A stretch of 64,000 nucleotides of DNA from Fimbriimonadia bacterium (lineage in GTDB: Bacteria; Armatimonadota; Fimbriimonadia; Fimbriimonadales; JABRVX01): contig JBGPGO010000009.1 of the NCBI GenBank assembly GCA_041483895.1, positions 64,001 through 128,000 on the forward strand, in the 5' to 3' direction. A program made the translations under genes and the position numbers. Position 1 is the stretch's first letter. The number at the start of each line of letters is the position of its first letter. Below the pieces are notes generated by a model. It saw nothing but the letters and a program-made list of their open reading frames with translations. It was not told the origin of the DNA and ran no database searches. Below are positions 1,634 through 50,069 of this stretch, in pieces.

Positions 1634-3586
1634 ATGCGAACGAATGGATTATCACGCACCCTGATCCAGTCGGCAATCGTCGCCGTCGCCATGACGGCGT
1701 TCCAGGCGTCTGGCCAGAGAGCCGATTACCAATCCGAAACTGCCACGTTACGCGTTCCGTTCCTATTGGATACAACCGAAGCCATGCTCGCGAGGGACCG
1801 TCTCATGCCGCCTCCGAATGGCATCCAGGTGATTCGGAACATTTTCCAAATCACGGAGGACGAGCGCGAGGGTAAGGACGGAGGAAAGAATCCGTTCCAG
1901 GAAATCATCCCCGGCAAATATTTTCCGGGACCGAGCGAGAACGGCGGAACTCCGGGGGATCCAAATATGGCGGCCGGCCCGAACCACGTCATCGCATGCA
2001 TCAATGGTTCGATTCGATTCTATACCAAGGCCGGAGGCCTGACCTTTAGCGTGAATCCAGCGTCATTCTTCTCCGGACTCGGCGTCAGCCTCTGCTGCGA
2101 TTGCCGATGCTTCTATGATCCGGGCTCGAAGCGATTCTTTATCATGTACTTGGGGTTCGACGGCACCAACCACAGCTACTACGAGGTCGCCGTTTCGGAC
2201 GATGACAATCCTAACGGGACCTGGGCGAAATGGGTGCTGAACTCCAGCATGAACGGAACAACGCTAAGTAACTTTTGGACCGACTATCCTGGGTTTGGAT
2301 ACACTTCCGACACGCTGATATGGACCGGAAACATGTTCCCGATTTCCGGAAGCGGCAACTATGGCAAGATTCGCATTGCGGGAAAGCAGCAGTTCCTGGA
2401 CGGCTCACCCACAATAACATATACCGACTTTTGGAACTTTACAAACCCCGCCGGTGGCACAGCGTTCAGCCTCCAACCGGGAAGAACCACGGGCGCCGCG
2501 AATGTGCCCGTTGTGGTGAACGTGAGCGGCACCAATCGGGTGAATGTATTTGCCATCCAGAACCCATTGACAGCGCCCGCCCTTGTCAAGAAGTCCGTCA
2601 CTGTCTCATCGTTCGGCGGTCCAAGCGGCGGTAAGCAGCTGGGCACGACAACCAAGATCGACATGTTGGACAGTCGTGTATATGATGTCAATGTGCGCGA
2701 CAACATGATTCTCGTTACGCATAATATTTCAGGCGGCGCAGGCAGTCGCGTTCGATGGTATGAGTTGGATGGCAGCAACCTGCCGACAAGCGTTACCCTT
2801 GTGCAGCAAGGCAATATCGAGGACCCATCGTACTTCACCGGCTATGGATCGCTAAATAAGAACATGTACGGCACGATCGGTACCGGCCTCACTCGTACCA
2901 GCGCGACGGAGCACGTCGGCGTGTATTACACGGGACGCGAAGCCGGCGACGCACCGGGCACCATGAAGCCGATGACGCTCAAGCGCATCGGTGTCGCATA
3001 CAACGGCGAGAACAGCGGCGCAACCTCCCGCTGGGGCGACTACTGTGGCGGGGCTCTCGACCCGGATGATTTCACCTTCTGGGCGATCGGGATGGTGCCG
3101 GTATCCTCCGGCGCTTGGGGAACGGAAATCTACGCCTATACAATCGGAACCCCGGCGAACTTGGCCGGCAACATCCATTTGGATAGCTTTGTGGGCAGTA
3201 TCATCGGACAGGCTGCAACGCTAGAGTTTCGAAGCCCCGGAACCACCAACGTTTTGCATAGCTATCCGATTTCATTGAACGCCGGCGGTCTTTACATCAT
3301 CCCGGCGGTCGCCGTGGGAACGTTCGATCTCGCCATAAAGTTTTCGCATTGGCTCCGAACGATTCTGCCCTCGGTCACCTTCGCCCTTGGCGACAATTCG
3401 GTTGATTTCGATACCGCTAACGGTGACGCCGACGGCGACAACGTGATCGATTTGTTCGACGTCAACGCTGTTTTTGTGGTATTCGATTCGACGGACCCAT
3501 CCGGAGATCTGAATGGAGACAAAGCTGTCAATCTGGACGACCTGAATATCGCCCTAACAAGATTCGGCATGGCTGGACCGCCCTAG
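1634..3586 (+). CDS. Secreted protein with C-terminal beta-sandwich plus dockerin-like module
   Basis: Signal peptide; PGDPNMAAGPNHVI...RWGDY beta-rich domain; tail KFSHWLR...NGDADGDNVIDLFD...DLNGDKAVNLDDLN. Confidence 0.8.
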   Translation: MRTNGLSRTLIQSAIVAVAMTAFQASGQRADYQSETATLRVPFLLDTTEAMLARDRLMPPPNGIQVIRNIFQITEDEREGKDGGKNPFQEIIPGKYFPGPSENGGTPGDPNMAAGPNHVIACINGSIRFYTKAGGLTFSVNPASFFSGLGVSLCCDCRCFYDPGSKRFFIMYLGFDGTNHSYYEVAVSDDDNPNGTWAKWVLNSSMNGTTLSNFWTDYPGFGYTSDTLIWTGNMFPISGSGNYGKIRIAGKQQFLDGSPTITYTDFWNFTNPAGGTAFSLQPGRTTGAANVPVVVNVSGTNRVNVFAIQNPLTAPALVKKSVTVSSFGGPSGGKQLGTTTKIDMLDSRVYDVNVRDNMILVTHNISGGAGSRVRWYELDGSNLPTSVTLVQQGNIEDPSYFTGYGSLNKNMYGTIGTGLTRTSATEHVGVYYTGREAGDAPGTMKPMTLKRIGVAYNGENSGATSRWGDYCGGALDPDDFTFWAIGMVPVSSGAWGTEIYAYTIGTPANLAGNIHLDSFVGSIIGQAATLEFRSPGTTNVLHSYPISLNAGGLYIIPAVAVGTFDLAIKFSHWLRTILPSVTFALGDNSVDFDTANGDADGDNVIDLFDVNAVFVVFDSTDPSGDLNGDKAVNLDDLNIALTRFGMAGPP

Positions 3587-3817
3587 AGTTCAATGGCGTT
3601 TGTTAAGTCCGCATTGCGCTCATGAGAGACAATTGGGAACTATCATGAATCGAACCTCAGTCAAGCAGTCCCAGCGCAAGGGTCGGCCGGATTGACAAGC
3701 AGGTAGTTTGCTATGGAAACGGGACCGGGCCAATGGCCCAGTCCCATTCCATTTCGAGCAACATTTCCGGCCAACAGCCCGCCGCCATCGTGGAATGGAA
3801 ACTCCGGAGGTGGGCAG

Positions 3818-13033: not shown

Positions 13034-13585
13034 ATGAAGAAGAACTGTAAGGAAATCTATGATGAGCTGGTAGCGCTCGCCCTCGGAGAAAAGGGTGGCC
13101 AGGCCCGCGATCACCTCGCGGAATGCCAAAGCTGCCGGAAGCTGCTCGCCGAGCTCACCGATGTGGTCGAGGCATTGAAGGCGCGCTTTGCTGACGCTCC
13201 TGCCGCGCTGATCGAGCATGTCAAAGCGATCCGCATCGGCGAGCGCAAGACGACTCTGGCCCGGCTGGTCAGCACAAGCCTTAGTCTCGCTGGCGCGCGC
13301 GCAGAAGAGGCCGATTCCTTTCAAGCCGTATACGAGTACGCGGACGGCCAGGCAAGGCTGATGTATGTCCGGCAAAATCGCGGCTGGGAGGTCCTCGGCC
13401 AGGCGGCCAACCTGGTTTCTTGGCAGACGGGCGGCAAAGAACAGACCGCCCGCGCCGACGGAAGATTTAGCTTCAAGGCATCCAACCTCGACAAGACCGG
13501 CGTCCGGTTGCGACTGGCAGACAAGGATGTCGAAATCCCGCCCGTCGGTAAGGAGCTTTCCGGTGACTTCGGCGGAGCTTGCTAG
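13034..13585 (+). CDS. Putative soluble zinc-binding anti-sigma factor
   Basis: N-terminal HLAECQSC (HxxxCxxC ZAS motif) directly downstream of the ECF sigma; no TM helix seen. Confidence 0.7.
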   Translation: MKKNCKEIYDELVALALGEKGGQARDHLAECQSCRKLLAELTDVVEALKARFADAPAALIEHVKAIRIGERKTTLARLVSTSLSLAGARAEEADSFQAVYEYADGQARLMYVRQNRGWEVLGQAANLVSWQTGGKEQTARADGRFSFKASNLDKTGVRLRLADKDVEIPPVGKELSGDFGGAC

Positions 13586-16220
13586 CCGGCTCGAAACGGC
13601 CACCTCGTCGGAAGCTCGCTCGCTGATCAAGAATGCCCCGGCCGGCAGCGGCGAGGCGTTTTTTTGGCGCGTTGTTGAGCTATCGGCTTCCGACCCCAGC
13701 GCGGCGGAACGGCTTTCCCGGCATTGGAAGGCGGTGCTTGCTAATGGCGATTCGCTTGCCTACGCCTATCGGGCCAAGGCGGTCGGAGAGCGGCTGCGCG
13801 GCAAATGGCTCGAAAGCGCGGAATCCTTTCAGAAGGCGGGCAGAGCGGCCAAGAACCCTATTGAGAGACTGACCTTCCAACGAGGCGCGGTCGATTCACT
13901 GGGCAGGGCGGGGAGGGTCGCTGAGGCCGTCGCGCTCGGCAAGCGGCTCATTCGCGGTCTCGACAATCGCAAAGAGACCGTCGAGGCTGCCAGAGTCCGG
14001 CTGAACGTCGGCAACGCGCTGCTCTGGGCCGACGAATATGAAACGGCCCGAACGTGGCTGAAACAGGCTTGGCAAAGCCTCCACAAAGCGGGCGAAGCGC
14101 GGGAAGCCTCAGCCGCGCTGCTCGGTCTTTCCACATCGGAATTCTATGGCGGCGATCCGTCCGCCTCCAGAGAGTACGCCCTGCAGGCACGCGACTGGTT
14201 CCAAAATGCCGGCGAGCCGTACTTTGCGCACCTCTGCGAACTCAACCTCGCTCAAGAGGCCATTCTCCGGGGACGGGGCGATGAAGCGCTCGACATGCTG
14301 CTTGCCATGCAATCCCTTCACAGTCAGACTGTGAAGGGATTGCATGGCGTGGATGCCGCGCGGCTGGAAGAGTTCATTGGCGACGCTTACTTTTCTCTCA
14401 ACTTGTGGCAAGAGGCCGAACAGAGCTACCGGTCTGCACTTAAGACGCCGGGGCTGCGAACGCTGCCCATGAACGTGGCAAACTGCCATCTTGGGATCGG
14501 GTTGGCTCTCGCGGCCAGGGAAGACGCCTTGGCGGTTCGGTCCCTCCGCCGAGCCGCATCGGACTACGAGAAGCTGAAGAATTGGGCATGGAACGGCGCA
14601 GCCCGAACGGAGCTCGCGCGTTCGCTGGCGATGCAGGGCAAGGCGAGCCTCGCCCGCTCCGAGGTCAAATCTGCGATTCGGACCTTGACGCGCGCCGGCT
14701 CCCCGTATCACCTCGCCTCCGCTCGATTGGTCGCCGCGGGTCTGGGCGATGAGAACTCCCTGGCGTTGGCAGAAAAGGACATAAGAAAGTACCGATTTGA
14801 CGCGCTCGCTTGGCAGGTGCATTCCCTCCGCGCTCGCGCCGCGCCGGAAGGCAAGCGGTTCCCACACTATCGCCGGATGTTCGCCTCCATCATCCAGGGC
14901 CGCTTGCGGACGACGTCGACTCTGTCTCGCGCGGCCTATCTGCGCGATAAAGCTGACGCCCTCGGCGCGTATCTTGCCGAACTTCTCACCAAACCGACGG
15001 ATGCCCGCATAGCGGAGGCCCTCGATGTCGTCGTTCAATCGCGTTCCGCCGCGCTGATCGACGAAATCCTCTCTTCGGCTGCGCCTATGTCTCCAGAGAC
15101 CGTTCGACAGATCGAGCGCCTGCGCGAAGAACTAAACCGTACCGGCGGTTCGACGACGCCGGGGAGCCGAGCCCGGTTTGCGCCGGCCAATCCCGCCCGG
15201 CTGGCGGCTCTCCAGCGGCGATGGACCGAGGCGATGCGCTGCTTTCAACCGGCTCTTCGCAGGCCGGTCCAACCGTCCGAAATTGCATGCACCGTGTTGG
15301 CGGAGACCAACGACGGCTACTACGCCATCCATCAAGGCCGTAGGGTTCGCCTCCCAATATCGGTCGTCGAGCTAAGAGAAGAACTAAAGTGGCTCGAATT
15401 CGACCTGCTGGGCCCGATGGCGATACGTGATTCCTGCCCAAAGTGCGTTCTTAGCAGCCTGGCCAGCCTGCGCAAGGTTCTTTTGGAGCCCTGGTTGGAA
15501 CCCGGGAGAAGCGTCGTTCCGCTTTCGCCCGACGGCCTGTTATGGCGAGTTCCCTGGCAGGCGCTTCTCAATCTCAATGGAACGGATGCCGAACCGCTGG
15601 TCCTCCCAAGTCCCCTATTCGGCCTCGATGCCTGTTGCGCGCGCCTGCCCAAGAGCCCGAAGGCGGCGCTATGGCTGTACGAAGCGCCGGACCTGCCCAA
15701 CATCAAGACCGAGGCGGAGGCCTTCCTGAAGCGCTTCCCGAAAGCCAAGATCGTCCGGACCCGCGCCGAAGCGATGGAGCCGGGCCGATACGATCTGGTT
15801 CATGTCGCCAGCCACGCCCGCAATCTTCCGGCCAACCCCATGTTCTCGGCGATACAGTTGGAGGACGGCTGGCTGCACGCCGGTGAAATCGCCCATTGCG
15901 GCGTACGGGCGGGACTGGTGACCCTTTCCGCATGCGAAACCGGGCGAATCAGTCTTTGGTCCAAAACCGAACCGGATGGGCTAACTCGCGCGTTCCTAGC
16001 TTTGGGAGCGCAAGCCGTCGTCGCCAGCGCATGGAATCTGGACGATATCATGGCAAGCGAGATGATGGCGGTCTATTATGCTGGGCTTACGGGCGGCGAA
16101 ACGGTCTCTCGATCCCTATCGGCAGCCCGGCAATTTGCGAAAAAAAGGCGGCCGCACCCGTATTATTGGGCTCCGCTTTTGCTATTTGGGGGTTATCATA
16201 GAGTGGGAGGGGCGGAATGA
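13563..16220 (+). CDS. TPR plus CHAT (caspase-like) domain protein
   Basis: GTG start after AAGGAG; Ala-rich TPR helices; SPDGLLWRVPW, LVHVASHA (His), VTLSACETG (Cys), HPYYWAPL. Confidence 0.9.
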   Translation: MTSAELASRLETATSSEARSLIKNAPAGSGEAFFWRVVELSASDPSAAERLSRHWKAVLANGDSLAYAYRAKAVGERLRGKWLESAESFQKAGRAAKNPIERLTFQRGAVDSLGRAGRVAEAVALGKRLIRGLDNRKETVEAARVRLNVGNALLWADEYETARTWLKQAWQSLHKAGEAREASAALLGLSTSEFYGGDPSASREYALQARDWFQNAGEPYFAHLCELNLAQEAILRGRGDEALDMLLAMQSLHSQTVKGLHGVDAARLEEFIGDAYFSLNLWQEAEQSYRSALKTPGLRTLPMNVANCHLGIGLALAAREDALAVRSLRRAASDYEKLKNWAWNGAARTELARSLAMQGKASLARSEVKSAIRTLTRAGSPYHLASARLVAAGLGDENSLALAEKDIRKYRFDALAWQVHSLRARAAPEGKRFPHYRRMFASIIQGRLRTTSTLSRAAYLRDKADALGAYLAELLTKPTDARIAEALDVVVQSRSAALIDEILSSAAPMSPETVRQIERLREELNRTGGSTTPGSRARFAPANPARLAALQRRWTEAMRCFQPALRRPVQPSEIACTVLAETNDGYYAIHQGRRVRLPISVVELREELKWLEFDLLGPMAIRDSCPKCVLSSLASLRKVLLEPWLEPGRSVVPLSPDGLLWRVPWQALLNLNGTDAEPLVLPSPLFGLDACCARLPKSPKAALWLYEAPDLPNIKTEAEAFLKRFPKAKIVRTRAEAMEPGRYDLVHVASHARNLPANPMFSAIQLEDGWLHAGEIAHCGVRAGLVTLSACETGRISLWSKTEPDGLTRAFLALGAQAVVASAWNLDDIMASEMMAVYYAGLTGGETVSRSLSAARQFAKKRRPHPYYWAPLLLFGGYHRVGGAE

Positions 16221-17824
16221 GATTAGTCCTGTTCGCACTGTACTTTGCGCTCGCCGTCGCGGCGTCGGCGAAAATGCAATATATAGCTCGCATGAACCCC
16301 GGCGTCGATCCGAGTGTCGTGGAACCGTTCGGGTTCATGGTGGCAGATACGATAGCCGATTCGCCGTACGTTCTTCTGAAGACGCCGCCGGACTGGACCT
16401 ACGCACAGGCGGACGTTGCCCGGGACCTGCTCGCCGCCAGTGGCTTTGTCGCGTGGGTCGAGGACGATTACGCCTGCGCGATTCCCGAGCATGGCGGGGC
16501 GGGAAAAGGCAGCACCATCGGCTCCGTCTCCGGCCCCGATACATTCAAGATAATGAATGCCGCCGCACTCACCATGGTAAATTGGCCGGGCGCGGACTTC
16601 GGTCAGCGGTCCGGAACGACGATCGCCATTATCGATACCGGTTTATCTCCCAACGTCCCCTCGCTGTGGACCGGCGTGGTCGCCACGCTAAATACAGTGG
16701 AGCCCGGACAGCCTGCCTACGACATTCCTCACGATACCGACAGCTCCAAGAATGGTGTGGTCGATGAAGGGCTGAGCCATGGGACGATGATTGCCGGCAT
16801 CATCGCCTCTATGGCCCCGCGCTCGCCCCTGATCATCGTGCGAGCGCTGGACAGCGACGGCGTGGGCGATGCCTGGAACATTATTAAAGGGATGATTTTC
16901 GCACTCGATCACGGCGCGAAGGTGTTTAACCTCAGCTGGGGGAGCGCGGACGATGTTCCCGCGATCTATGACGTGATGGTTTGGGCGCAGTCCACGAATG
17001 CCGTCTATGTCGCTTCCTCCGGCAACCTCGGACAGCAGTTGGCTTGGAACCCGGCGCAGGGGCCGCATTGCATCAGCGTGACCGGAATCGATTCCGCCAG
17101 CGTGAAAACTTCATGGGCAAACTGGGACGGCAGCATCGATGCCTGCGCCCCGTCGATGGATCTGTTTAGCTGCTGGTGGGATGGGACCGTCGGTGTTTGG
17201 TCGGGCACTTCGTTTGCCGCACCGTTGGTGACGTCGGCCGTCGCCCTCGCTTTTCAATACAACCCGACATGCCCCGCCGCGATGATGATCGAAACCGTCA
17301 CGACAACCGGGACAAATGTGGACGGCCTGCCCGGCAATGAGGCGTTCGCCGGCCAGATCGGCACTCGGCTGAATATCCAAGCCTTGCTATTGGCCACCGC
17401 ACTGCATTCCACAATCTCCGGCATTGTTACTTTCGAATTCTTGGCCGGCCCGATTCCTTCTTCGATCCCAATGGAGGTGAACTGGGATGGGATCGATCTG
17501 GGAGAGATGCAGGTTCCATTGGACGCCACCGGTGCATTCTCGCTCGATCTGCCGGCGGGGTCCATCACGGTGGAGAGCAAAACCACGCATTGGTTGGAGC
17601 GCTATCAAGGTTTCGATACGAGCGACGGCTCGATCGACGAGGTTGTGTTTGACCTGTACAACGGCGATGCCAACAATGACAATGTCGTGGACCTAAAGGA
17701 CCTGAACATGTTGTTCATCGAGTTCGGCGAGCCGACTCCGATGGCGGATCTGGATGAAGACGGGATCGTCTCGCTGGGCGACATCAACATCGTGTTCATG
17801 AACTTCGGCCTTGAAGGCGCTTAG
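16217..17824 (+). CDS. Secreted S8 subtilase with C-terminal dockerin-like module
   Basis: Signal peptide; IAIIDTG, HGTMIAG, SGTSFAAP catalytic triad; ATGA overlap with CHAT gene; tail THWLE...NGDANNDNVVDLKD. Confidence 0.9.
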   Translation: MRLVLFALYFALAVAASAKMQYIARMNPGVDPSVVEPFGFMVADTIADSPYVLLKTPPDWTYAQADVARDLLAASGFVAWVEDDYACAIPEHGGAGKGSTIGSVSGPDTFKIMNAAALTMVNWPGADFGQRSGTTIAIIDTGLSPNVPSLWTGVVATLNTVEPGQPAYDIPHDTDSSKNGVVDEGLSHGTMIAGIIASMAPRSPLIIVRALDSDGVGDAWNIIKGMIFALDHGAKVFNLSWGSADDVPAIYDVMVWAQSTNAVYVASSGNLGQQLAWNPAQGPHCISVTGIDSASVKTSWANWDGSIDACAPSMDLFSCWWDGTVGVWSGTSFAAPLVTSAVALAFQYNPTCPAAMMIETVTTTGTNVDGLPGNEAFAGQIGTRLNIQALLLATALHSTISGIVTFEFLAGPIPSSIPMEVNWDGIDLGEMQVPLDATGAFSLDLPAGSITVESKTTHWLERYQGFDTSDGSIDEVVFDLYNGDANNDNVVDLKDLNMLFIEFGEPTPMADLDEDGIVSLGDINIVFMNFGLEGA

Positions 17825-19485
17825 GGATCGCCGACCGCGCCGTAGTTGAGGAAGACGATGCTGATATCTTTGACGTCCACCATTCCTGATTCGTCGAGGT
17901 CGGTGAAATCGGTGGGTGTGGTGGATCCGTAATCTACGAAGATAGCGGAGAGATCCACAAGATCGATTCGGTTGTTCCCGGTCGCGTCGCCATTGATTAG
18001 GGAGAGAACGGCCGATTCCGCGGGCGCCGAGCGCCGCAACCAGTGGGTCTGTTTGAGAGAGATGTCAACCGGTCCACGCGGGACTCGGATGGTAAAGACT
18101 CCCTGATCATCGAGCGCAACATCCTCGCCGCCGAAGGGCCGGACCGAGCCGCCGTGACGAACATCCAAAAACACCTGGCTCGGCATAGCGCCCGCCAGTC
18201 CGTCGAAACCGATGCTCCCAGATACTTCGGTAGGTCTCGTATCGATGCGGAAGATGTCCCGCAGGCCGCCGGTGTCGCCCTCTACCAGATTCGTCGCATC
18301 GCTCTCCAGCGCGAACATCCGGCCATCCTCGCTGACGGCGGGCGCGAAGGAACTCTTGTCTCCCGCAACCCCTGCTGACGAAGCGCTGATGCATTCTGTC
18401 GCGCTGGTTCTGCGGTCGTGGACGAAGGCGTCGGTTTTGCCATTGGTGTCCCCGGCGGCGAGGTTCGCAGCGTCGCTCTCGAACGAGACGTACCTGCCGT
18501 CGAAAGACAGGGCCGGCCACCGCGAATTGTCATTCCCTTGGGCGCCATCCCACGATCGGGACACCAATTCGGTCGTTCCGTTCGCCAAATCCCGAACGAA
18601 GACATCCATTTTGTTGTTGGCGTCTCCCGCCACGATGTCCGAGCCGCCGCTATGGAATGCCACCAACAGCCCGTCTCCGCTTACAACTCCGCTGGCCGCG
18701 CCGCCGACGCTGGGTGTTCCACTTTGAGAAACGCTTGCGCAGACGGTGGTTCGCATTAGCCGATCTCGGACAAAGGCGTCGCTCGTATTGTTCTTGTCGT
18801 TCGGGACCAGGTTGTCGGCGTCGCTGACGTAGGCCACGAAGCGGCCATAGGCGGAAATGGTGGGCCGATACGATCCCTTGTTGCCGCCTTTGCTGATCAT
18901 TTCGAGCGTTCTTTCCTGCCGATCGTAGAGGAAGATGTCGCTGGCGGCGTTCGTATCGCCGAGGACGAGGTTGCTGGCGTCGCTTTGGAACGCCACGTAG
19001 CGGCCGTTGGTGCTGATGGCGGGCTGCCAGGAGTTACCGTTGGCTTCTGCCCCATCCGCGGCCACGCTGATTCTCTCCGTGAGCCCGGTATCGACGTCAT
19101 GGACGAAGATATCGTTGAAGCCGTTTGTGTCGCCCGCTACTAAATTCGAGGCGTCGCTTTGGAACGCGACATGGAGCCCGTCGCCGCTGAGCGCCACCCG
19201 CCACGACTGGCCGTTGCCTTGGGTTCCGTCGCTCGCGACGCTCACCCGGATTGTCTGCCCGGTCGCAGCTTCCCACACGAACACATCATAGGCGTTGTTG
19301 GTGTCTGACTCGACCAGTTTCGAGGCCAGGCTATCGAAAGCGACGCGGCTTCCGTCGGCGGAGAGACTGCACCGGACGCAGAGCTTATCGGCCGCTGCGG
19401 TTGTCCGCAGCACGTCGAATTGGGCGGTAGCGAGGCTGGGAACGAATAGTAGACAAAGTACGTCTAATACAGAGGGTCGCTTCAC
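17821..19485 (-). CDS. Secreted TolB-like (PD40) beta-propeller with dockerin-like tail
   Basis: Repeats of S.DGR.VAF.S.ASNLV.GDTN...DIFV.D; tail KQTHWLR...NGDATGNNRIDLVD. Confidence 0.85.
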   Translation of the reverse strand: MKRPSVLDVLCLLFVPSLATAQFDVLRTTAAADKLCVRCSLSADGSRVAFDSLASKLVESDTNNAYDVFVWEAATGQTIRVSVASDGTQGNGQSWRVALSGDGLHVAFQSDASNLVAGDTNGFNDIFVHDVDTGLTERISVAADGAEANGNSWQPAISTNGRYVAFQSDASNLVLGDTNAASDIFLYDRQERTLEMISKGGNKGSYRPTISAYGRFVAYVSDADNLVPNDKNNTSDAFVRDRLMRTTVCASVSQSGTPSVGGAASGVVSGDGLLVAFHSGGSDIVAGDANNKMDVFVRDLANGTTELVSRSWDGAQGNDNSRWPALSFDGRYVSFESDAANLAAGDTNGKTDAFVHDRRTSATECISASSAGVAGDKSSFAPAVSEDGRMFALESDATNLVEGDTGGLRDIFRIDTRPTEVSGSIGFDGLAGAMPSQVFLDVRHGGSVRPFGGEDVALDDQGVFTIRVPRGPVDISLKQTHWLRRSAPAESAVLSLINGDATGNNRIDLVDLSAIFVDYGSTTPTDFTDLDESGMVDVKDISIVFLNYGAVGDP

Positions 19486-27009: not shown

Positions 27010-27243
27010 TCTAACCGCGATCATATCACAACGTTGTGAAAACGGGCCTACATTTCCGGCTGAATCCCCATTTGAATACAGGCCGGCGCTCCCAGAATGC
27101 GGTTGGGTCGGACAAATTCCCACGTTAGGATCAGATAAAAATACTTGCCATCTTGGCAAATCAGCGATATGATGTAGCTCGTTTGATTGTTGACTATTGC
27201 TCCTGGATGAAATCGCTAGTTAGCTAGATTGAAAGGAAGAATC

Positions 27244-27771
27244 ATGAGACATCGATCTTTGCACCTAGCCCTTTCGCTTGCCTTCGGCGCGTTTGCCGGG
27301 GCGGTCCACGCTACGCTCTTCACTGCGAGCATGGACGGACTACAGGAAAACCCTCCGACTGGTTCGCCGGCGGTGGGATACCTTACCGGGTCCCTCACTG
27401 GTGGTCCCGGAAGCTGGGTCTTCACCTACTCCTATAGCTACTCCGGATTGACCATCGGCGCGACGGCGGGGCACATCCATAACGCTCCCGTCGGCGTGAA
27501 TGGCGGGGTGAAGCATCCCTTGGACATTCAGCCGACCGGAACTTCCGGCGGGCCGTTTCCGGGAGACTGGCGCTTCGACGACGGCACCGGTCCGTTGTCG
27601 GACTTTCTCGCATCCGAGATGTTGATCGAGAGGACCTACGTTAACATCCATACGTCAAATTTCCCCGGCGGGGAGATTCGCGGACAACTGAGAGTCGTGC
27701 CCGAACCGAGCACGGTCGTTGCCCTATTGACCGGTGTTGGCGCGCTCTTTGCGAGGCGAAGAAAGTCCTGA
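27244..27771 (+). CDS. CHRD-domain PEP-CTERM protein
   Basis: Signal peptide; GLQENPP, GHIH, YVNIHTSNFPGGEIRGQL; VPEP-TM-RRRK sorting signal. Confidence 0.9.
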   Translation: MRHRSLHLALSLAFGAFAGAVHATLFTASMDGLQENPPTGSPAVGYLTGSLTGGPGSWVFTYSYSYSGLTIGATAGHIHNAPVGVNGGVKHPLDIQPTGTSGGPFPGDWRFDDGTGPLSDFLASEMLIERTYVNIHTSNFPGGEIRGQLRVVPEPSTVVALLTGVGALFARRRKS

Positions 27772-27898: not shown

Positions 27899-28672
27899 AT
27901 GAAATCGGTCTTTATATATCTCCTCCCATTGATGGCGGCGGGGGGAGCTTTCGCTGCGACGGTCGATGTCCACATAGTGTCCAACAACTACTCACCACAG
28001 CATGTCACAATCAATCAGGGAGACAGTGTCCGCTGGATCAACGACGACATTGCGATCCATACGGCGACCAGCGGCACCGGTTACGTGCCAGACGGTGTAT
28101 TCGATACCGGTAACCTGGCACACAACGAGACATCCACCATACCATTCAACACGCCGGGCACCTATTTCTACTTCTGTATCCTGCACGAGGCGTTGATGGT
28201 GTTTGGGAACGACTACAGCGTTATCGTCAATGCGCCGAACTCGTCACTGAGCGGCAACATCGAACTCGATGGTTACTCGGCCGATCCGACTGGGCTGACC
28301 GCGACCCTGGAGTTTCGAACTCCAAGCACGACCAACGTGATCCACAGCTACCCGATCACTTTGAACGGTTCGTCCAACTACTCGGTCGCATCAGTGGTGG
28401 CGGGGACCTGGGATGTGGCAGTCAAATTCTCCCATTGGCTCCGCAACAAGGTCACATCCAAGGTGATCGTGGCCGGCGCGAATACGGTCGATATTTCGCA
28501 GCTCAACGGCGATGGAGACATGGATAACGCCGTGACGCTCGGTGATCTAAACTCTATCTTCATCAATTTCGCCGCACCCGATCCGGATAATGATCTGGAC
28601 GGGAGCGGCCAAGTAGACCTACCGGATTTGAACATTGTGTTCATCAATTTTGGCCAGGCCGGCGTGAGTTAG
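27899..28672 (+). CDS. Cupredoxin (type 1 copper) with dockerin-like tail, copy 1
   Basis: GDSVRW, HTAT, YFCILHEALM (His/Cys/His/Met ligands); tail KFSHWLR...NGDGDMDN. Confidence 0.88.
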   Translation: MKSVFIYLLPLMAAGGAFAATVDVHIVSNNYSPQHVTINQGDSVRWINDDIAIHTATSGTGYVPDGVFDTGNLAHNETSTIPFNTPGTYFYFCILHEALMVFGNDYSVIVNAPNSSLSGNIELDGYSADPTGLTATLEFRTPSTTNVIHSYPITLNGSSNYSVASVVAGTWDVAVKFSHWLRNKVTSKVIVAGANTVDISQLNGDGDMDNAVTLGDLNSIFINFAAPDPDNDLDGSGQVDLPDLNIVFINFGQAGVS

Positions 28673-28933: not shown

Positions 28934-29707
28934 ATGAAATCGGTCTTTATATATCTCCTCTCATTGATGTCGGCGGGGGGAGCTTTCGGCGCGACGGTCG
29001 ATGTTCACATTTCTGGCTTCAACTTCTCGCCGCAACATGTTACGATCAATCAGGGAGACAGCGTCCGGTGGATCAACGACGACATCATTATCCACACGGC
29101 GACCAGCGGCACCGGATTTTTGCCGGATGGCGTGTTCAATTCCGGAAACCTTAGCCACAGTGGAACATTCACGAAGATGTTCAACACAGCAGGCACATTC
29201 TTCTATTATTGCGGCATTCACACAACGATGATGGCGCACGGCAATGATTACAGTGTCATCGTCCAGGCGCCCAACTCTTCCCTTAGCGGCAACATCGATC
29301 TGGACAGCTATGTTGCGAGCCCAAATGGGTTGACGGCCACGCTGGAATTTCGGACGCCGAGCACTACAACCGTGGTGCACAGCTACTCGATCACGCTCAA
29401 TGCTTCTTCCAACTACTCGGTTGCAAGCGTCGCGGCCGGTACGTGGGATGTGGCGGTCAAGTTCTCTCATTGGCTCCGCAACAAGGTCTCATCAAAGGTG
29501 ATAGCTGCCGGCGCGAACACAGTCGATATTTTTCTGCTCAACGGCGATGGAGACATGGATAACTCCGTCACAATTAGCGATCTCAATTCCTTATTCATTA
29601 ACTTTACTACGGCCGATCCCGATAACGATCTGGACGGAAGCGGGCAAGTGGACCTACCGGATTTGAATGTGGTCTTCATCAATTTCGGGCAGTCTGGCGT
29701 GGCGTAG
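28934..29707 (+). CDS. Cupredoxin with dockerin-like tail, copy 2
   Basis: 257 aa like copy 1; HTAT, YYCGIHTTMM. Confidence 0.88.
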   Translation: MKSVFIYLLSLMSAGGAFGATVDVHISGFNFSPQHVTINQGDSVRWINDDIIIHTATSGTGFLPDGVFNSGNLSHSGTFTKMFNTAGTFFYYCGIHTTMMAHGNDYSVIVQAPNSSLSGNIDLDSYVASPNGLTATLEFRTPSTTTVVHSYSITLNASSNYSVASVAAGTWDVAVKFSHWLRNKVSSKVIAAGANTVDIFLLNGDGDMDNSVTISDLNSLFINFTTADPDNDLDGSGQVDLPDLNVVFINFGQSGVA

Positions 29708-34639: not shown

Positions 34640-36026
34640 TCTTGGGCCAATATTTGTCGTACATGAAGTTCGGACTATTTTCGGGGTTGTGACAACCGAT
34701 GCAGGCCTTCTCGCCGTTCGCCTTCATTGATGGATATTGCATTGGAGTGGCCCCGCCGTCTTTCTTGGCTTTGTAATAGGCGACATGCTCGCTGCCCGGT
34801 CCATGACAGTTTTCACAGCCGACATCCCGCAGATGCGGCGTCGCGACCGGCGTGGAGAAGCCGCTCTTGTAGGCAAAACCAACCGAGTGACAACCGACGC
34901 ATTCTGGGTTGTAGTCCATCTTCACCTTTGTCAAGGTCGCGTAGGCGTGGGAATGCGGCGATGCCTTCCAAATGTCCTGTTCCTTCTGATGGCAAGAGGC
35001 GCATTCGTTTGACCCGACATAGGTCGCGGACGCCGGCTCCTTGATCTTGGGATGCGTTTTCAAGTAGTCGCCTTCTCGCAATCGAAGCGAGTAATAGTCC
35101 CTGATGGAAGCGGTCTTTTCATCATCCGCGAAGGTGGGCCCAAGCTCGACGTGGTTGGCAGTGATTCCATCCTGCGCGATCTTAAGCTCGCCGACCTCTT
35201 TGCCCCTCTCGCCGGCCGCGACCAACATCACTGTCCCGATCTTGATCGGTTCCTGCCACTTGTCCGATGCGTGGGCGTAGACGATCGCTTTGAGCCAGGG
35301 CGCGGCCTTTGCCGCTTCGATGGCGCCCTCCTTGCCGCCGTGGAAAAGCAGAACGGCGGCCTTGCCCTTTGCCGCCGACTTCATCTCTTGCAGCAGATCT
35401 TCGACGGGCAATACCTGGAACCCAGGGCACGAACTCTTGATCGCATCCTCAAACAGCGGCGAAATCGCGCCGATTATCAGCAGCTTGCCGCCACCCACAT
35501 CCGTTCGCTCTACCGATGCCGGGAATGGCCGTTCACCGTTCTCATCCCGCACGTTCCCGGAAATAAATGGGGTCCCGTAATTGATGGTCATCAGTTTTAG
35601 GGTGTCGACGCCGAGAGCATAATCCTGCTCACCAAGGTTGACCGCCCCGTATTTGAGCGACTTGAAATATTCGGCGATGATTTCCGTCTTCAGCAGAGAT
35701 TGCGGTTCGAGATCGCTCACCAAATCCCCATTGGAAACCGGCACGGCGCGGGGGTCGGACAGGTACTTTCGGATGAATGTCGCCTGTCGCGCAAGACCGC
35801 CGACCTGGGGGGCCGTGCAACCGCACGGCTCCAGGTATCCGCGTAGTTCTCCGGTGAACAGCAGGCGCCAATCACTCGCCGGCCCATCCGATCTAGCGCC
35901 GACGAGAATCAGCGCCAGCAAGACGGCGGTGATGATCCCCGTTATCGCCCGGGCGATCAGTGTTCGGTGCCCGAGCCGCCGGGTACCGGCTGGGCCCCTG
36001 GCACGTCGTTCGTTACATTGAGCCAT
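34629..36026 (-). CDS. Tetraheme cytochrome c (c554-like) fused to a 5'-nucleotidase/UshA-like domain
   Basis: Four CxxCH (CASCH, CVGCH, CENCH, CIGCH); GELRGYLEPCGC...GGLAR; start uncertain, may lie near 35960. Confidence 0.8.
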   Translation of the reverse strand: MAQCNERRARGPAGTRRLGHRTLIARAITGIITAVLLALILVGARSDGPASDWRLLFTGELRGYLEPCGCTAPQVGGLARQATFIRKYLSDPRAVPVSNGDLVSDLEPQSLLKTEIIAEYFKSLKYGAVNLGEQDYALGVDTLKLMTINYGTPFISGNVRDENGERPFPASVERTDVGGGKLLIIGAISPLFEDAIKSSCPGFQVLPVEDLLQEMKSAAKGKAAVLLFHGGKEGAIEAAKAAPWLKAIVYAHASDKWQEPIKIGTVMLVAAGERGKEVGELKIAQDGITANHVELGPTFADDEKTASIRDYYSLRLREGDYLKTHPKIKEPASATYVGSNECASCHQKEQDIWKASPHSHAYATLTKVKMDYNPECVGCHSVGFAYKSGFSTPVATPHLRDVGCENCHGPGSEHVAYYKAKKDGGATPMQYPSMKANGEKACIGCHNPENSPNFMYDKYWPKIKH

Positions 36027-37741: not shown

Positions 37742-37919
37742 AGTCTTGTAGCCACCTCGATTTGGGTCCCTAATGCGGGGCGCAGGACCGCTCTCCCCAC
37801 AGGATGCTCTATAATGATACGCCAAAACGCCAGTGGCTGTCCCCATTTGACTGGCGCTACGTTAATATCACTTGTTGCGCGTCGGTATTTCGCCGGTACG
37901 ATTGCGAGGTCTGTCACAG

Positions 37920-39446: not shown

Positions 39447-40403
39447 ATGTCTATCCTCAACAAGACTCTGACCAGCGCTTTGGCGCTGTGTGTAGTGGCC
39501 GGCTCTTTCGGCCAGCTCGTTAAGTCGGGCAATACCAACAACACGAACAGCTCCAAAGTCGGTAACTCCGGCGTCGGCGCTGCCGCTGATGATGGTAGCC
39601 TGTACTTGCTTGTAGTCCCGAACCTGATCTGGGGCCGAGACGACGTGATCACGGACCCGTTCGATGGTCAGAAAAAGCATTGCTTCCGACCGGAAGTCAT
39701 CAACATCGATCATCTTACGATCCGCGACGTCCTTACGGCCACCGGTACAACCGGTATCGACGGCAACCTGCTCGTCCAGGCCGTGCGCGTCTCCAAGGAG
39801 ACTCCGTACTGGAAGTGCACCGCGTTCGTTACCGGTCCGGGTTCCGGTCGAAACACCAACTTCGACACCGGCTGGAAGTACGCTGACAGCTCGATGCTCG
39901 ATGACTTTCTCTGCAACATCGCCTTCGGTATCCCCTTCGATTCGAAGTGCCTAGGCGATCGCTGCCTTCTCTTCTCGCCGCCCGCGACCAAGTACACCCT
40001 GTACGTGGCCTATGTGCGCCGAGATCCCAAGACCGGCCGTGTCGGCGCTCCTGTAGTCGTCCGATACTGCATCCAGGTCAGAATCCCGACCCGCGAGGAC
40101 ATCGCTTGCAACATCGAGTACTTCATGACCGTCGCCGCCGGCGTGACCCAGAAGTGCAAGATCACGGAAGAGTGCGCTGAGGCTTTGCTCGTCGCTTTGA
40201 GCGAGCCGGACAACCTGACCGCGTTGCTCGAGTTCGAGTTTGTGGTTGCGTTCTGCGCCATCGACTTCAGCGTTCTTCGCGATGCCAAGGATGCTGACGG
40301 CAACTGGGATGCTCGCTTCATCAGCGACTACCTGATCGACAGCGACGAAGAGCCGATCGGCTGCCTTCTCATCGAAATGGCGAATGCCGCTCTTTGGTTC
40401 TAA
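39447..40403 (+). CDS. Cys-rich secreted hypothetical protein
   Basis: AAGGAG RBS; signal peptide; 11 Cys in the mature part; own terminator. Confidence 0.8.
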   Translation: MSILNKTLTSALALCVVAGSFGQLVKSGNTNNTNSSKVGNSGVGAAADDGSLYLLVVPNLIWGRDDVITDPFDGQKKHCFRPEVINIDHLTIRDVLTATGTTGIDGNLLVQAVRVSKETPYWKCTAFVTGPGSGRNTNFDTGWKYADSSMLDDFLCNIAFGIPFDSKCLGDRCLLFSPPATKYTLYVAYVRRDPKTGRVGAPVVVRYCIQVRIPTREDIACNIEYFMTVAAGVTQKCKITEECAEALLVALSEPDNLTALLEFEFVVAFCAIDFSVLRDAKDADGNWDARFISDYLIDSDEEPIGCLLIEMANAALWF

Positions 40404-45807: not shown

Positions 45808-47898
45808 ATGAAACGAGTGGGTTTCCTTATTGTCGCGGCTTTGGCGGGGTTGCCGGTCGTCGGCCAAATTCAAACAAAATCGGATCGGTTGATCGCGGAA
45901 CGTCTTTCTGTGTCGGAGTGGAACCTTCAGGCCTTCGACCTTCCCGACCGGGTCCAGCCAACTGTCTATGTTCCCATAAAGCTCGGCGGCTTGGACTATC
46001 AGCTCAAGCTATGGCCGCATGATAATCGCGCCAAGGATTTCAAAGTGTTGGTTCAAGGCGCCGACGGCCAACTCCGCGAGGTCGTGCCGCCTGTGCCGCG
46101 AACGTATCAAGGGACGGTCCTCACCGCGGACGGAGAACCGGTCGATGGAACAGTGGTTGCCTGCTCGATCGTCAATCGGCAACTTCGCGGCATGGTCTGG
46201 ATTAATTTCCGCGAGGACCTTCCCGGACCGCAGATACGATATACGATCACTCCTCTCTCTGATATCGATCGATCTGCCGCGAAACCTCTGCACGTTGTCA
46301 CCGACAACTTCGCTCTCAAGTTGCTGCCTTACACATGTGAGGAAGTCCAGATTGAGCACGACGACGGTGGGGACGGCGTATCGATGCAAGCCACAGGAAA
46401 CAAGATCTGTGACATTGCGTTCGATGCCGATTATGAGTTTTATCAGCTCAGTGGCAGCAGTGTGCCGAATGTGGTGTATGACATCGAAAACACGCTGCAA
46501 TCCGTGGAAATGATCTACCAGCGCGATTGCCAGATATCCTATGAAGTGCCGGCAATTATCGTTCGGACGACAGTGAACGATCCATATTCAACTACCGTTG
46601 GCGCGACGGTTCTGTCCCAGATGAGAACGGAGTGGAACAACAATCAGGCATTGATCCGCCGTGACTTGGCGCAATTGATCACTGGGCGCGACCTCGATGG
46701 CACTTTGATCGGCATCTCTTATATTGGCGTAGTGTGCACACTCACTGACGCCTACGGTGTGAATGAGCTAGAGTATTCTCCCTATTTCGAATTGCGAGTC
46801 GCCTTGCTGGCGCATGAGATCGGACATGGTTGGAATGCGGTCCATTGTGTAGAAAACACCGATTGCCACATTATGTGCGCCGTAATCGATTCATGCGACG
46901 GCGTCTTAGGCCCCAATCTTCGTTTCGGCGTCGGCGAAAAGGGATTGATCAATCCGTTCAGAGATTCCCGGACCTGCCTCACGACGGAACCGGATACGCT
47001 GTCCCCGCCGTTTACCGAGGCCTGGCCCGCGGCCGCGATCGATCAGACCCGGTGGACCTACTTCAAGAATCCCTTCGTGGTCTCGAATGCCGTCAACGAA
47101 CCAAGTCCTCTTCTGTCATTGCGATTGCGGGCCGCATCGTCGTTGGCCTATGCGAATGACGAAATTCGAAGCAATTACATCAATATGCTCGGCCAGTCAG
47201 GGTCCGTAATCTCGTTTTGGACGGAGCATGTCGGCGTGGAATCCGGCAAGAAGCTGTACGTCGAGTTTTGGAACCAATCGCAGCTTCGCTGGGATCCGGT
47301 TACGACGCTGACTTCGAACGGTACGGATCAATCGGATTTTGTCAAGACTACGGTCAATATGCCGACGGCGGGCTACTCCAGCAGATTCCGGATTCGCTTC
47401 GTCGCCGGTTCGACTGACACGACCGACAATTGGTACGTTGACGACATTTCGATAAGCGGCGTGCCGTTAGCGACGGTTTCCGGGAACGTAGTGTTGGAGA
47501 ATCTAGCGATCAGCCCGGCGGGCCTTGTGGCGACCTTGCAATTCCGAACGCCGGGAACAACAAACGTCTTCTATAGCAGCAATATCACATTAAATGCCAA
47601 CGGAGACTATTCGTTGGGTACCGTCCCGCCGGGCACATACGATATTGCCCTGAAATTCCCGACTTTCCTTCGCAAAGTCGTGACCAATAAAACGGTCAGC
47701 GGCACGACAACCAACGTCAACTTCGACCTGGTTTGTGGTGATTCGGATGGAAACAATGTCATAGACTTGAAGGATATGAATCCGGTATTTCAGAACTTCC
47801 TGCTGCCGGGTCAGGGCGACGTTAATCTGTCCGGACTCGTCGACCTGCTTGATCTCAACCTGATGTTTGCCAACTTTGGAATGTCAGGAACCAACTAA
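45808..47898 (+). CDS. Secreted M12B (reprolysin-like) zinc metalloprotease with dockerin-like tail, copy 1
   Basis: Signal peptide; AFDADYEFY, HEIGHGWNAVH, CHIMC Met-turn; tail CGDSDGNNVIDLKD. Confidence 0.88.
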   Translation: MKRVGFLIVAALAGLPVVGQIQTKSDRLIAERLSVSEWNLQAFDLPDRVQPTVYVPIKLGGLDYQLKLWPHDNRAKDFKVLVQGADGQLREVVPPVPRTYQGTVLTADGEPVDGTVVACSIVNRQLRGMVWINFREDLPGPQIRYTITPLSDIDRSAAKPLHVVTDNFALKLLPYTCEEVQIEHDDGGDGVSMQATGNKICDIAFDADYEFYQLSGSSVPNVVYDIENTLQSVEMIYQRDCQISYEVPAIIVRTTVNDPYSTTVGATVLSQMRTEWNNNQALIRRDLAQLITGRDLDGTLIGISYIGVVCTLTDAYGVNELEYSPYFELRVALLAHEIGHGWNAVHCVENTDCHIMCAVIDSCDGVLGPNLRFGVGEKGLINPFRDSRTCLTTEPDTLSPPFTEAWPAAAIDQTRWTYFKNPFVVSNAVNEPSPLLSLRLRAASSLAYANDEIRSNYINMLGQSGSVISFWTEHVGVESGKKLYVEFWNQSQLRWDPVTTLTSNGTDQSDFVKTTVNMPTAGYSSRFRIRFVAGSTDTTDNWYVDDISISGVPLATVSGNVVLENLAISPAGLVATLQFRTPGTTNVFYSSNITLNANGDYSLGTVPPGTYDIALKFPTFLRKVVTNKTVSGTTTNVNFDLVCGDSDGNNVIDLKDMNPVFQNFLLPGQGDVNLSGLVDLLDLNLMFANFGMSGTN

Positions 47899-47999
47899 CA
47901 CAACAGGTCGATTATCCACGCTGGAGTTATCGGGCGGGGAACAATATCGAAGGTCAGGATGTCAGATCGGTGGGGTTCATACAACCCCGGAGGTCCAAC

Positions 48000-50069
48000 T
48001 TGAGATATTTCGCCGCCCTCTGTGCCTTGGCAATCGGCTTGGCATCACTGGGCCAGATAGAAACGAAGGCCGACCGCCTGATCCATGACAAGATGATGGT
48101 TTCAGAGTGGACCGTGCAAGCTCTAACGTTGCCAAGAACCGTCCAGCCCACGGTGTTGGTGCCGATCAACTTGGGAGGGCAGGCATTCACCCTGAAGCTC
48201 TGGCCGCACGCATCTCGATCCAAGGATTTCAAGCTCCTCATCCAAGATCGAACCGGATTGCACGAGGAGCCCGCCGCCGCCCCAAGCACATGCAGAGGCA
48301 CGGTACTGGGCGTCGATGGCAGCGCGGTTTCCGGATCGATCGACAACAACCAATTCACCGGCCTCGTCGTCTTCAATTTCACAGGCAAGGAGCCGGGACC
48401 GGAAGTGCGCTATTCCGTGGTACCGCTCAGTCAAATCGACCCGACCGCGGCGAAGCCGCTTCACGTTGTCGCAGACAGTTCCAACCTCCTGCCAACTCCG
48501 TTTCATTGTGGAGTGACGGAAGGTTCCCGCGATAACGACGGTGACGAGGTAATCATCCAAGCGACCGGAGAGAAGATCTGCGATATCGCGTTCGATAGCG
48601 ACTACGAGTTCTATCAGAAGAATGGCAGCAGTGTTCCGAACACGATGAAGGATATCGAGAACGTGATGAATACGGTCGAGTTTGTTTATGAGCGGGATGT
48701 GGATATAACGTATGAGGTAACCACGATCGTTGTCCGTACAATTGCGGCGGATCCGTATACCAGCACCGACCCAAACACGATCTTGACCGAGTTTCAGAAC
48801 GCCTGGAACTCGGGAATGGGGCTGATCCGCAGAGACACGGCGCACATGATGACCGGCAAGGCTATCGATGGAAATGTGATTGGGATCTCCTTTGTTGGAG
48901 TCATATGCAACACATCGTATGGGTATGGACTTGACGAATCGCGATTCTCGAGCAATTTTGATCTACGGGTGGCACTTTCCGCGCACGAGATCGGACACAA
49001 CTGGAATGCCAGCCATTGCAGCGGCTCGGATTGCCACATTATGTGTCCCACAATCAATCAGTGCGGCGGTGTCACCGGGAGCAATCTGAAATTTGGGGCC
49101 GCGGAACAGAGCGAGATTGAGACGTTTCGCGCAACTCTATCCTGCCTCACTACAGAACCCGACTTCCTAAGCCCCCCGTTCTCAGATGCTTTCCCCACCA
49201 GCCTCATCGATTCCAACAAATGGGTGTACGTTTACGGGGCGACCGCGCCAACGACCGCTTCCAATGAGCCCAGTCCATCGAATTCCTTGGACTTGGACGC
49301 AACGGTCTCAGCCGATTATGCCGACGACGAGATCCGAACGCACTTCATCAACCTGTCCGGCCTGTCCGGGCATATTGTCTCCTTCTGGATCGAGCACATC
49401 GGCGTCGAATCCGGAGAATCGCTGAGCGTTGAGTATTGGAACAAAGGACAACTTCGATGGGACGTGCTGACAACGGTCGCGTCGGATGGCGTCGACCAAA
49501 CGAACTTCACATACACTGTGGTGGGGTTACCGGCGGCGGCCTATACCACCGATTTCCGCCTCCGGTTCGTCGCTGTCGTCAATGAGCCGAATGACGACTG
49601 GTACATCGATAATGTATATGTCGGGGCGCCGCTCACCGCGACGGTGCAAGGGAATGTCGATCTTCAGAGCATCGCAATTAGCCCATACGGCCAATCGGCA
49701 ACGATCGAATTCCGATCCCCGAAAACGACGAACCTGGCCTTCAGCGGTCCGGTCTCCTTGGATGGCAACGGAAATTATGGGATCGCGGGCGTGCCGATCG
49801 GCGTGTACGACGTCGCAGTGAAGTTCCCGACATGGCTTCGGCAGGTTTTGCCGAGCCGCACAATCGCCTCACCAAGCACTTCGGGTGTGAACTTCAGTCT
49901 GGTCTGCGGCGATGCGGTCGAAGACAATTCGGTTGACCTGTTAGACCTGAACAGGGTGCTAACAAACTTTGGAGGGTTTGGGGAAGGGGATGTCGATCTG
50001 TCCGGTCTAGTTGATCTCCTCGACCTCAACACCATCATGGCGAACTTCTTAATGGCGGGACAACCGTAG
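48000..50069 (+). CDS. Secreted M12B zinc metalloprotease with dockerin-like tail, copy 2
   Basis: TTG start after GGAGG; HCG possible cysteine switch; HEIGHNWNASH, CHIMC; paralog of the upstream gene. Confidence 0.88.
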   Translation: MRYFAALCALAIGLASLGQIETKADRLIHDKMMVSEWTVQALTLPRTVQPTVLVPINLGGQAFTLKLWPHASRSKDFKLLIQDRTGLHEEPAAAPSTCRGTVLGVDGSAVSGSIDNNQFTGLVVFNFTGKEPGPEVRYSVVPLSQIDPTAAKPLHVVADSSNLLPTPFHCGVTEGSRDNDGDEVIIQATGEKICDIAFDSDYEFYQKNGSSVPNTMKDIENVMNTVEFVYERDVDITYEVTTIVVRTIAADPYTSTDPNTILTEFQNAWNSGMGLIRRDTAHMMTGKAIDGNVIGISFVGVICNTSYGYGLDESRFSSNFDLRVALSAHEIGHNWNASHCSGSDCHIMCPTINQCGGVTGSNLKFGAAEQSEIETFRATLSCLTTEPDFLSPPFSDAFPTSLIDSNKWVYVYGATAPTTASNEPSPSNSLDLDATVSADYADDEIRTHFINLSGLSGHIVSFWIEHIGVESGESLSVEYWNKGQLRWDVLTTVASDGVDQTNFTYTVVGLPAAAYTTDFRLRFVAVVNEPNDDWYIDNVYVGAPLTATVQGNVDLQSIAISPYGQSATIEFRSPKTTNLAFSGPVSLDGNGNYGIAGVPIGVYDVAVKFPTWLRQVLPSRTIASPSTSGVNFSLVCGDAVEDNSVDLLDLNRVLTNFGGFGEGDVDLSGLVDLLDLNTIMANFLMAGQP

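Follow-up and report, generated by a model that had tools for sequence, protein, structure and literature searches.

An X-module and dockerin tail on exported proteins of a Fimbriimonadia bacterium, with candidate cohesin-like receptors ending in PEP-CTERM

The stretch of DNA analysed here, called the window throughout, comprises 64,000 nucleotides (G000:C9:64001-128000) of the 3.95-Mb genome of a Fimbriimonadia bacterium (G000; 95% complete) and encodes seven proteins sharing a C-terminal module of about 143 amino acids, referred to below as the tag. The seven copies presented 14 invariant columns and 30-49% identity to the first one. An earlier note on this DNA had described seven open reading frames (ORFs) with signal peptides and a common C-terminal end; all of them were recovered, all ended in the tag, and 7/7 passed the signal-peptide rule applied in this work, which is a crude hydrophobicity rule and not SignalP. 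The fifth ORF starts at ATG 28934, and the start of the seventh is either GTG 47970 or lies near 48000. The tagged genes are listed below, with E-values of the tag profile where given.

1634..3586, plus strand: exported 650-amino-acid protein of an unnamed family with six paralogues in the genome; tag at about 3149-3583 (E 7.5e-46)
16217..17824, plus strand: exported S8 subtilase (Peptidase_S8); tag at about 17402-17821 (E 5.2e-42)
17821..19485, minus strand: exported TolB-like beta-propeller (PD40) of a 17-member cluster; tag at about 17824-18237 (E 2.1e-37)
27899..28672, plus strand: exported cupredoxin (Copper-bind); tag at about 28235-28669, the copy used for the structure model
28934..29707, plus strand: second cupredoxin (Copper-bind), a tandem duplicate 79% identical to the first; tag at about 29270-29704
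45808..47898, plus strand: exported M12B metallopeptidase with a reelin-B-like domain; tag at about 47464-47895 (E 1.5e-45)
47970..50069, plus strand: second M12B metallopeptidase; tag at about 49632-50066 (E 3.8e-43)

Pfam matches and motifs agreed with the cargo named in the earlier note (one S8 protease, two M12B proteases, two cupredoxins, a TolB-like propeller and, at 1634, a protein without family). The D/H/S catalytic residues of subtilases were readable in the translation of the S8 ORF, the HExxHxxxxxH motif was present in both M12B translations, and both cupredoxins contained the His-Cys-His-Met set. A glycoside hydrolase match was obtained for 0/7 of these proteins, as had been claimed. 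The window was the densest in tags among the 44 full 64-kb windows of the genome (7 vs. a mean of 2.1), and a reading of its seven genes as a single locus was rejected.

Searched against the PDB sequences, a profile of the tail matched the C-terminal end of the scaffoldin CipA (2b59_B, E 7.6e-11); only chains composed of an X-module and a dockerin (XDoc) gave strong matches, and six of them were found at E-values from 1.5e-12 to 2.7e-9 (2b59, 3kcp, 5g5d, 4wi0, 4u3s, and 5k39). The AlphaFold2 model of the tag, built from 47 copies, reached a predicted local distance difference test value (pLDDT) of 98. In a wide VIA search this model was superimposed on the XDoc of CipA with Z 14.5 and a root-mean-square deviation of 2.3 Å over 135/143 residues; a second XDoc followed at Z 14.2 whereas the next unrelated structure reached only Z 7.4. 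The likeness to the X-module and type II dockerin of CipA, which the earlier note had pointed out and proposed to check by structure comparison, was thus borne out both in sequence and in predicted fold.

Among the 107 full-length copies, with a mean identity of 31%, aspartic acid occupied positions 1 and 12 of the calcium loops almost without exception (104/107 and 107/107 for loop 1, 107/107 and 105/107 for loop 2), and the strict full-loop pattern was present in 69/107 and 79/107 copies for loops 1 and 2, respectively. A predicted helix follows each calcium loop (residues 100-108 and 127-136 of the model), and the same pattern of leucine, asparagine, and phenylalanine is kept on both helices. 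We infer, by analogy with the known structure of dockerins, on which this reading leans, that the pattern would form a conserved and internally symmetric binding face. All these features taken together strongly indicate, from sequence and model, that the tail is an X-module followed by a type II dockerin, an XDoc member on every testable feature. None of the seven ORFs matched a Pfam dockerin at E ≤ 0.01, and the GC-type dockerin (NF041540), tried as an identity for the tag, was rejected (12-14.7 bits in 4/7 proteins and no match in the rest, against a cut-off of 29). Since both models fail in this way, the module is easily overlooked.

The tag extends far beyond the window. The iterated profile of the seven tails, built as the earlier note had suggested, matched 123 of the 44,413 six-frame ORFs of the genome and none of a reversed ORF set (E ≤ 10), so that the likeness of the tails is not due to chance. 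The prediction that such matches would be confined to the C-termini of exported proteins held as well: the tag lay within 2 residues of the stop in 120/123 ORFs, including all 114 with E < 1e-15, it occurred once per protein, and a signal-peptide-like start was found in 109/121 tagged ORFs vs. 810/2,386 background ORFs. Lipoproteins and Tat substrates were rejected as descriptions of the tagged proteins (motifs in 2/121 and 0/121, respectively).

The passengers long enough for comparison (n = 116) fell into 47 clusters. Cargo was assigned with Pfam in 28/123 proteins, the seven of the window and 21 sampled to cover the main clusters. These 21 included propellers of the Kelch, RCC1, PQQ, BNR, and FG-GAP types, S8 proteases, adhesin-like proteins with Ig, CARDB, or beta-helix domains, a phosphoesterase, and glucose/sorbosone dehydrogenase, together with four proteins without family and a single glycoside hydrolase match (Melibiase, GH36-like).

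A second sorting tail, PEP-CTERM, occurs in the same neighbourhood of the window, and two of the genes bearing it are related in position or family to the tagged genes:

27229..27771, plus strand: CHRD-domain PEP-CTERM protein (TIGR02595, E 5.4e-7), directly upstream of the cupredoxin pair; not a candidate receptor
51875..53308, minus strand: PEP-CTERM protein belonging to a 17-member cluster; two of its relatives bear the XDoc tag instead

In the whole genome, relatives with a PEP-CTERM tail exist for 11/116 tagged passengers, and in one such pair the passengers share 68% identity although their tails differ; either tail can thus stand in functionally for the other. Between the two cupredoxin genes we observed a 70-codon remnant with a PEP-CTERM tail (28594-28803, plus strand) resembling the end of the CHRD gene; the CHRD gene and the cupredoxin gene would therefore have been duplicated together, with decay of the second CHRD gene. 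No relatives emerged when the cupredoxin was used in a pattern scan.

The best matches of the G000 FtsZ were Armatimonadetes/Fimbriimonadales records, with 53-55% identity. In order to place the tag in its lineage, 151 genomes of the order were surveyed, belonging among others to families f1 (that of G000), f2, and f4; the unpublished genome G036 served only as a tag-free denominator. The tag was found in 73/151 genomes, of which 37 had at least 21 matches (tag-rich) and 36 had 1-8, and 78 had none; scoring stopped at 26, and in one run at 97. Tag-rich genomes made up 3/3 of f1, 19/19 of f4, and 15/113 of f2. PEP-CTERM tails were present in 41/41 genomes tested.

The earlier note had postulated a cohesin-like receptor and reported no cohesin in the window. 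The latter held within the searches made, as neither a Pfam cohesin nor any match to the partner family A2 described below lies in it; the candidates lie elsewhere in the genome. At E ≤ 1 the Pfam Cohesin model (PF00963) matched nothing in G000, and in 41 genomes nothing exceeded its cut-off. For the postulated receptor there are concrete candidates, supported by their genomic context. Clustering of about 90 PEP-CTERM candidates of G000 revealed a first family, A2, composed of a signal peptide, one domain of about 185 residues, and PEP-CTERM. A2 has the features of a substrate of the PEP-CTERM/exosortase system (signal peptide, and PEP motif with hydrophobic helix and basic tail), and an exosortase gene (PF09721, E 1.7e-45) is located at C3:200236-201000. 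G000 encodes 22 A2 ORFs with the PEP motif (21 with the full tail), mostly in four tandem arrays, along with five ORFs in which the A2 domain is followed by the XDoc tag, one ORF with neither tail, and one fragment. A2 and the domain of a second family, A4, are present in single copy per protein in G000, where six ORFs present a cohesin-like domain fused to the tag. Within the tandem arrays we also observed a dockerin-only fragment (C11:3574-3783) and a partial A2 copy (C29:10914-11327), which, together with the frequent location of the arrays at contig ends, suggests that recombination and under-assembly may have affected them.

The A2 model (pLDDT 95.5) was compared with known structures by Foldseek; every match listed down to rank 38 was a cohesin, alone or in complex, the first at E 7.8e-5, and 17 matches had E ≤ 0.001. 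With VIA-align the best cohesins gave Z 7.9 with a root-mean-square deviation of 3.7 over 133 aligned residues, a range that the tool terms a common arrangement. In the ESM Atlas, A2 fell at 0.91 to a cluster in which 13% of the members are cohesins, and recognition stayed under the threshold; A4 (G000 C10:42287) scored 0.94 against one in which Pfam cohesin accounts for 58% of the members (22/30 matches). With moderate confidence, the predicted fold class of A2 is that of cohesins, although not uniquely so. In a library of 1.84 billion proteins, 41 A2 matches were obtained. All complete ones have PEP-CTERM or the tag at their end apart from three: the last module of one is a different one, and two lack both tails. 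Neither A2 and A4 nor a third family, A9, had any relevant match among the PDB sequences.

Further candidates were obtained by reading 30 PEP-CTERM loci in each of two genomes, G020 (of 33) and G040 (of 40), which yielded A5 in f4 and, in f2, a look-alike (A6, subsequently A9). A5 is homologous to A2 (hhalign 77%, E 2e-5), and A2 and A5 jointly occur in 10/151 genomes, all tag-rich. The A4 gene follows a gene with a variant tag; it ends in PEP-CTERM in G033 and G099 and in the tag in G000-G002, and it was not found in four tag-rich genomes then without other partner. In G000 it belongs to an operon (L009, G000:C10:35275-43252) in which two proteins of about 1,100 amino acids end in a variant XDoc with an extra EF-hand-like segment and the third gene encodes A4 plus XDoc, its counterpart in G033 ending in PEP-CTERM; this layout suggests a possible second, separate class of dockerin-cohesin specificity.

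A9, a PEP-CTERM domain family comparable to A2, was detected in 22/113 f2 genomes, all of them with the tag: 22/48 tag-bearing f2 genomes encoded it vs. 0/65 tag-free ones (14/40 vs. 0/65 once the 8 genomes from which the profile was built were set aside). With a wider A9 profile, matches were gained in 2/5 tag-rich f2 genomes still lacking one and in 0/5 tag-free controls. In 9 of the 12 A9-positive genomes with 1-6 tags (G013, G031, G051, G089, G108, G112, G128, G145, and G146), the A9-PEP-CTERM gene lies immediately beside a tagged gene on the same strand; in the other three, one ORF lies between them (G087), they are not adjacent (G098), or the contig end cuts the site (G133). With few tagged genes among about 3,000, we estimate the chance of such adjacency at well under 1% per genome. 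Adjacency was retained in three tag-rich genomes of one genus. Receptor arrays were found in G073, G082, and G120 and receptor-tag fusions in G016 and G082, the layout being as in G000; this combination recurs in separate families.

The reading that we consider probable, with appreciable doubt, is that the tag docks exported cargo in a calcium-dependent manner onto proteins with a single cohesin fold held by the PEP-CTERM/exosortase system, the fusions serving as adaptors; it is based on the fold of the tag, the fold of A2, co-occurrence, and gene adjacency. According to this model, cargo carrying a signal peptide would be exported and the tag would fold as an XDoc with two calcium loops, a step strongly supported by the structure model. 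The putative receptors (signal peptide, one cohesin-like domain, and PEP-CTERM; 22 encoded in G000) have a cohesin fold predicted with moderate support, and they would be processed and anchored by the exosortase, whose gene is present and whose activity is proposed by analogy with the PEP-CTERM/exosortase system. Fold, co-occurrence, and adjacency then suggest that the tag binds the receptor, and the proteins in which a cohesin-like domain is fused to the tag, an observed architecture, could act as adaptors or chain extenders. The outcome would differ from a multi-cohesin cellulosome: a coat in which each anchor holds one enzyme, made up of proteases, beta-propellers, redox proteins, and adhesin-like proteins. 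For a wider proposal we see even chances: a two-layer display in Fimbriimonadales in which exosortase-anchored, fast-evolving cohesin sockets receive XDoc modules present on up to about 3% of the genes, cohesin-XDoc adaptors build chains, and an original gene pair of one cargo and one socket grew, in several families separately, into sorting on the scale of the whole genome.

Several observations weigh against docking onto cohesin-like receptors. The 13 candidate receptor domains had no Pfam Cohesin match at E ≤ 1, the TM-scores of A2 to cohesins in Foldseek were only 0.42/0.52, and VIA-align placed CnaA-type adhesin or pilin domains (Z 9.0-8.2) over cohesins. A9, the family with the strongest genomic context, gave no PDB sequence match and its homology to A2 was not significant (E 0.01-0.11). 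Comparisons of the A2-A4, A2-A6, A5-A6, A9-A8, and A9-A10 profiles were not significant either; with enlarged sets the scores reached 14.7-23.2 vs. at most 13.3 in 30 column-shuffled A9-versus-A2 controls and 10-12 with an unrelated PEP-CTERM family. Homology among the three candidate families is therefore not demonstrated. In the tag-free genome G010 a weak A6 match was rejected, being partial and lost with profiles. The support from fold (A2) and that from adjacency (A9) belong to different families, and A2 lacks one-to-one adjacency to tagged genes. Related genomes are not independent and Fisher values on the co-occurrence of A9 overstate it; among the nine adjacency cases, G128 and G146 were found by looking beside tags, whereas the other seven were position-blind. 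The exchange of tails among passengers does not single out the cohesin-like domain. Finally, no partner family was detected in 24/48 tag-bearing f2 genomes nor in 15/37 tag-rich genomes (12/19 of f4 and 3/15 of f2, the latter all of genus g34 and one with 4 contigs), in only some of which A4 was searched; some of these partnerless genomes are fairly complete.

Such gaps would be expected if the tag were a sorting or anchoring signal independent of cohesins, read by a secretion machine or binding with calcium to an envelope polymer or S-layer, with the cohesin-like domains as passengers or adhesins that swap tails. The tie of the A2 fold with CnaA-type adhesins, the change of tail between A4 orthologues (the tag in G000-G002, PEP-CTERM in G033), the passenger pair with different tails, and a type II/type IV secretin in the window (61580-63925) are in line with this explanation. 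It nevertheless leaves without explanation the lack of A9 in 65/65 tag-free f2 genomes, when PEP-CTERM was found in all genomes tested, and the position of A9 beside a tagged gene in nine of the 12 tag-poor genomes. Missing partners may moreover be failures of detection, since these families evolve quickly (17-40% identity), every broadening of a profile brought in more of them, and several matches lie at contig ends. We regard this alternative as rather unlikely. Less probable still, and in our opinion improbable, is that the tag is a calcium-binding domain which stabilises its protein or associates with itself, has no dedicated partner, and has spread by domain shuffling. Many f2 genomes do have 1-3 orphan tagged genes with unrelated neighbours, 16/20 tag-poor genomes inspected had no PEP-CTERM gene directly downstream of the tag, and orphan dockerins of unknown function are known elsewhere, according to a review (PMC5244752); five of those 16 genomes, however, do have a partner, located upstream or one ORF away in G031, G051, G108, and G087 and elsewhere in G098, and such a domain would not account for the strict terminal position, the single copy per protein, the co-occurrence with partners, or the residues other than calcium ligands kept on both helices at so low a mean identity. 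A true polysaccharide-degrading cellulosome with its scaffoldin elsewhere in the genome, to which the cellulosomal origin of the nearest solved homologues and the Melibiase match would point, is largely excluded and was given the lowest probability: 27 of the 28 cargo proteins scanned had no glycoside hydrolase match, every A2 domain of G000 is single in its protein, and no Pfam cohesin exceeded the cut-off in 41 genomes. Docking onto PEP-CTERM-anchored cohesin-like receptors remains the preferred reading. Of the earlier proposal, a modular anchoring tag assembling proteases and redox proteins, the XDoc tag and the exported cargo hold and the receptor has candidates, but the term cellulosome-like needs qualification, since a scaffoldin with several cohesins was not seen and the sampled cargo contains few glycoside hydrolases.

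Other features were observed in the window. The secretin mentioned above (minus strand, GspD/PilQ-like, of the type II/type IV pilus kind) scored under equivalog cut-offs and is a candidate export route for the tagged proteins. An exported 318-amino-acid protein without Pfam or NCBIfam match (39447-40403, plus strand) consists almost entirely of a cysteine-containing C-terminal module of about 260 amino acids, unrelated to XDoc, which ends 10 ORFs of the genome and, in relatives, the protein P0017, with an A2 cohesin-like domain and Ig repeats (53% identity). This module is possibly a third sorting or anchoring tail, and in that case P0017 would be an anchoring scaffoldin. The tagged S8 protease gene overlaps at its 5' end with the stop of a gene for a TPR-CHAT protein (13365-16220, plus strand). 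The region 21295-24948, of lower GC content (52-56%), contains an ORF of unknown type and an Mrr-family endonuclease; at 34629-37846 (minus strand) a DUF1573/Ig protein is paired with a cytochrome c554-like protein containing multiple CXXCH motifs; and a divergent DnaA-like ATPase (Bac_DnaA, E 6.8e-10) lies at 56416-57507 (minus strand), with a CBS-GGDEF gene downstream of it and ftsZ in divergent orientation.

The system would represent a general means of surface display, of which no example is known in this lineage. Non-cellulosomal dockerins are widespread and mostly without known partner, and here there are named candidates that standard cohesin models miss, with gene pairs that suggest which candidate partner may belong to which dockerin. 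If correct, the proposed mechanism would link PEP-CTERM/exosortase and cohesin-dockerin sorting, so far treated apart, describe how the surface is built in a little-studied phylum, and enlarge the choice of cohesin-dockerin pairs from which enzyme assemblies can be designed; other orphan dockerin expansions might likewise hide divergent cohesins among PEP-CTERM proteins. The full-text literature, subscription papers lying outside its scope, gave no account of the module in Fimbriimonadales or of a PEP-CTERM-anchored cohesin.

The closest known counterpart is the XDoc of CipA from Clostridium thermocellum and related scaffoldins, which the tag resembles in sequence over both parts, predicted fold, C-terminal position, and two calcium loops. 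There the module is located on the scaffoldin, whereas in these Armatimonadota it is carried by about 120 diverse cargo proteins with no Pfam-detectable cohesin; clostridial cellulosome anchors use S-layer homology domains and the candidate receptors end in PEP-CTERM. Within the phylum, dockerin domains are reported to be absent from the carbohydrate-active enzymes of Fervidibacter sacchari (PMC11535203). Dockerins are also abundant in ANME archaea, with an unknown role, and the same review as above describes non-cellulosomal dockerin function in general as unknown (PMC5244752).

Two non-clostridial systems are more similar in cargo. The Planctosome of freshwater Planctomycetes (Nemodlikiaceae) is a hypothesised non-cellulolytic cohesin-dockerin complex which shares with the present system M12B reprolysin-like peptidases, an anchoring protein, and an adaptor with cohesin and dockerin (PMC6461901). 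Its proposed anchor is a 2,210-amino-acid lamin-tail protein, it comprises few proteins in contrast with 3% of the proteome here, and the text consulted mentions no X-module or PEP-CTERM anchor (PMC6461901). In Ca. Stygibacter (Cloacimonadota), exported S8 and other peptidases carry C-terminal dockerins within a cellulosome-like complex, but that complex has a 3,755-amino-acid multi-cohesin scaffoldin with carbohydrate-binding modules, and GH18/GH57 cargo (PMC8542988), none of which was seen here. The GC-type dockerin anchor likewise forms the dockerin-like C-terminus of numerous unrelated exported proteins; its model (NF041540) has 67 positions and no X-module, and the tails of the window do not end in Gly-Cys. 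As for PEP-CTERM/exosortase (TIGR02595, PF09721), it is present in the genome, has passengers in common with the tag, and supplies the proposed anchor. Compared with PEP-CTERM, the tag is a folded module of 143 residues without transmembrane helix, and its place would therefore be in the next layer outwards, held by non-covalent docking. In function the proposed system would correspond to the attachment of a cellulosome to the cell, without being a cellulosome.

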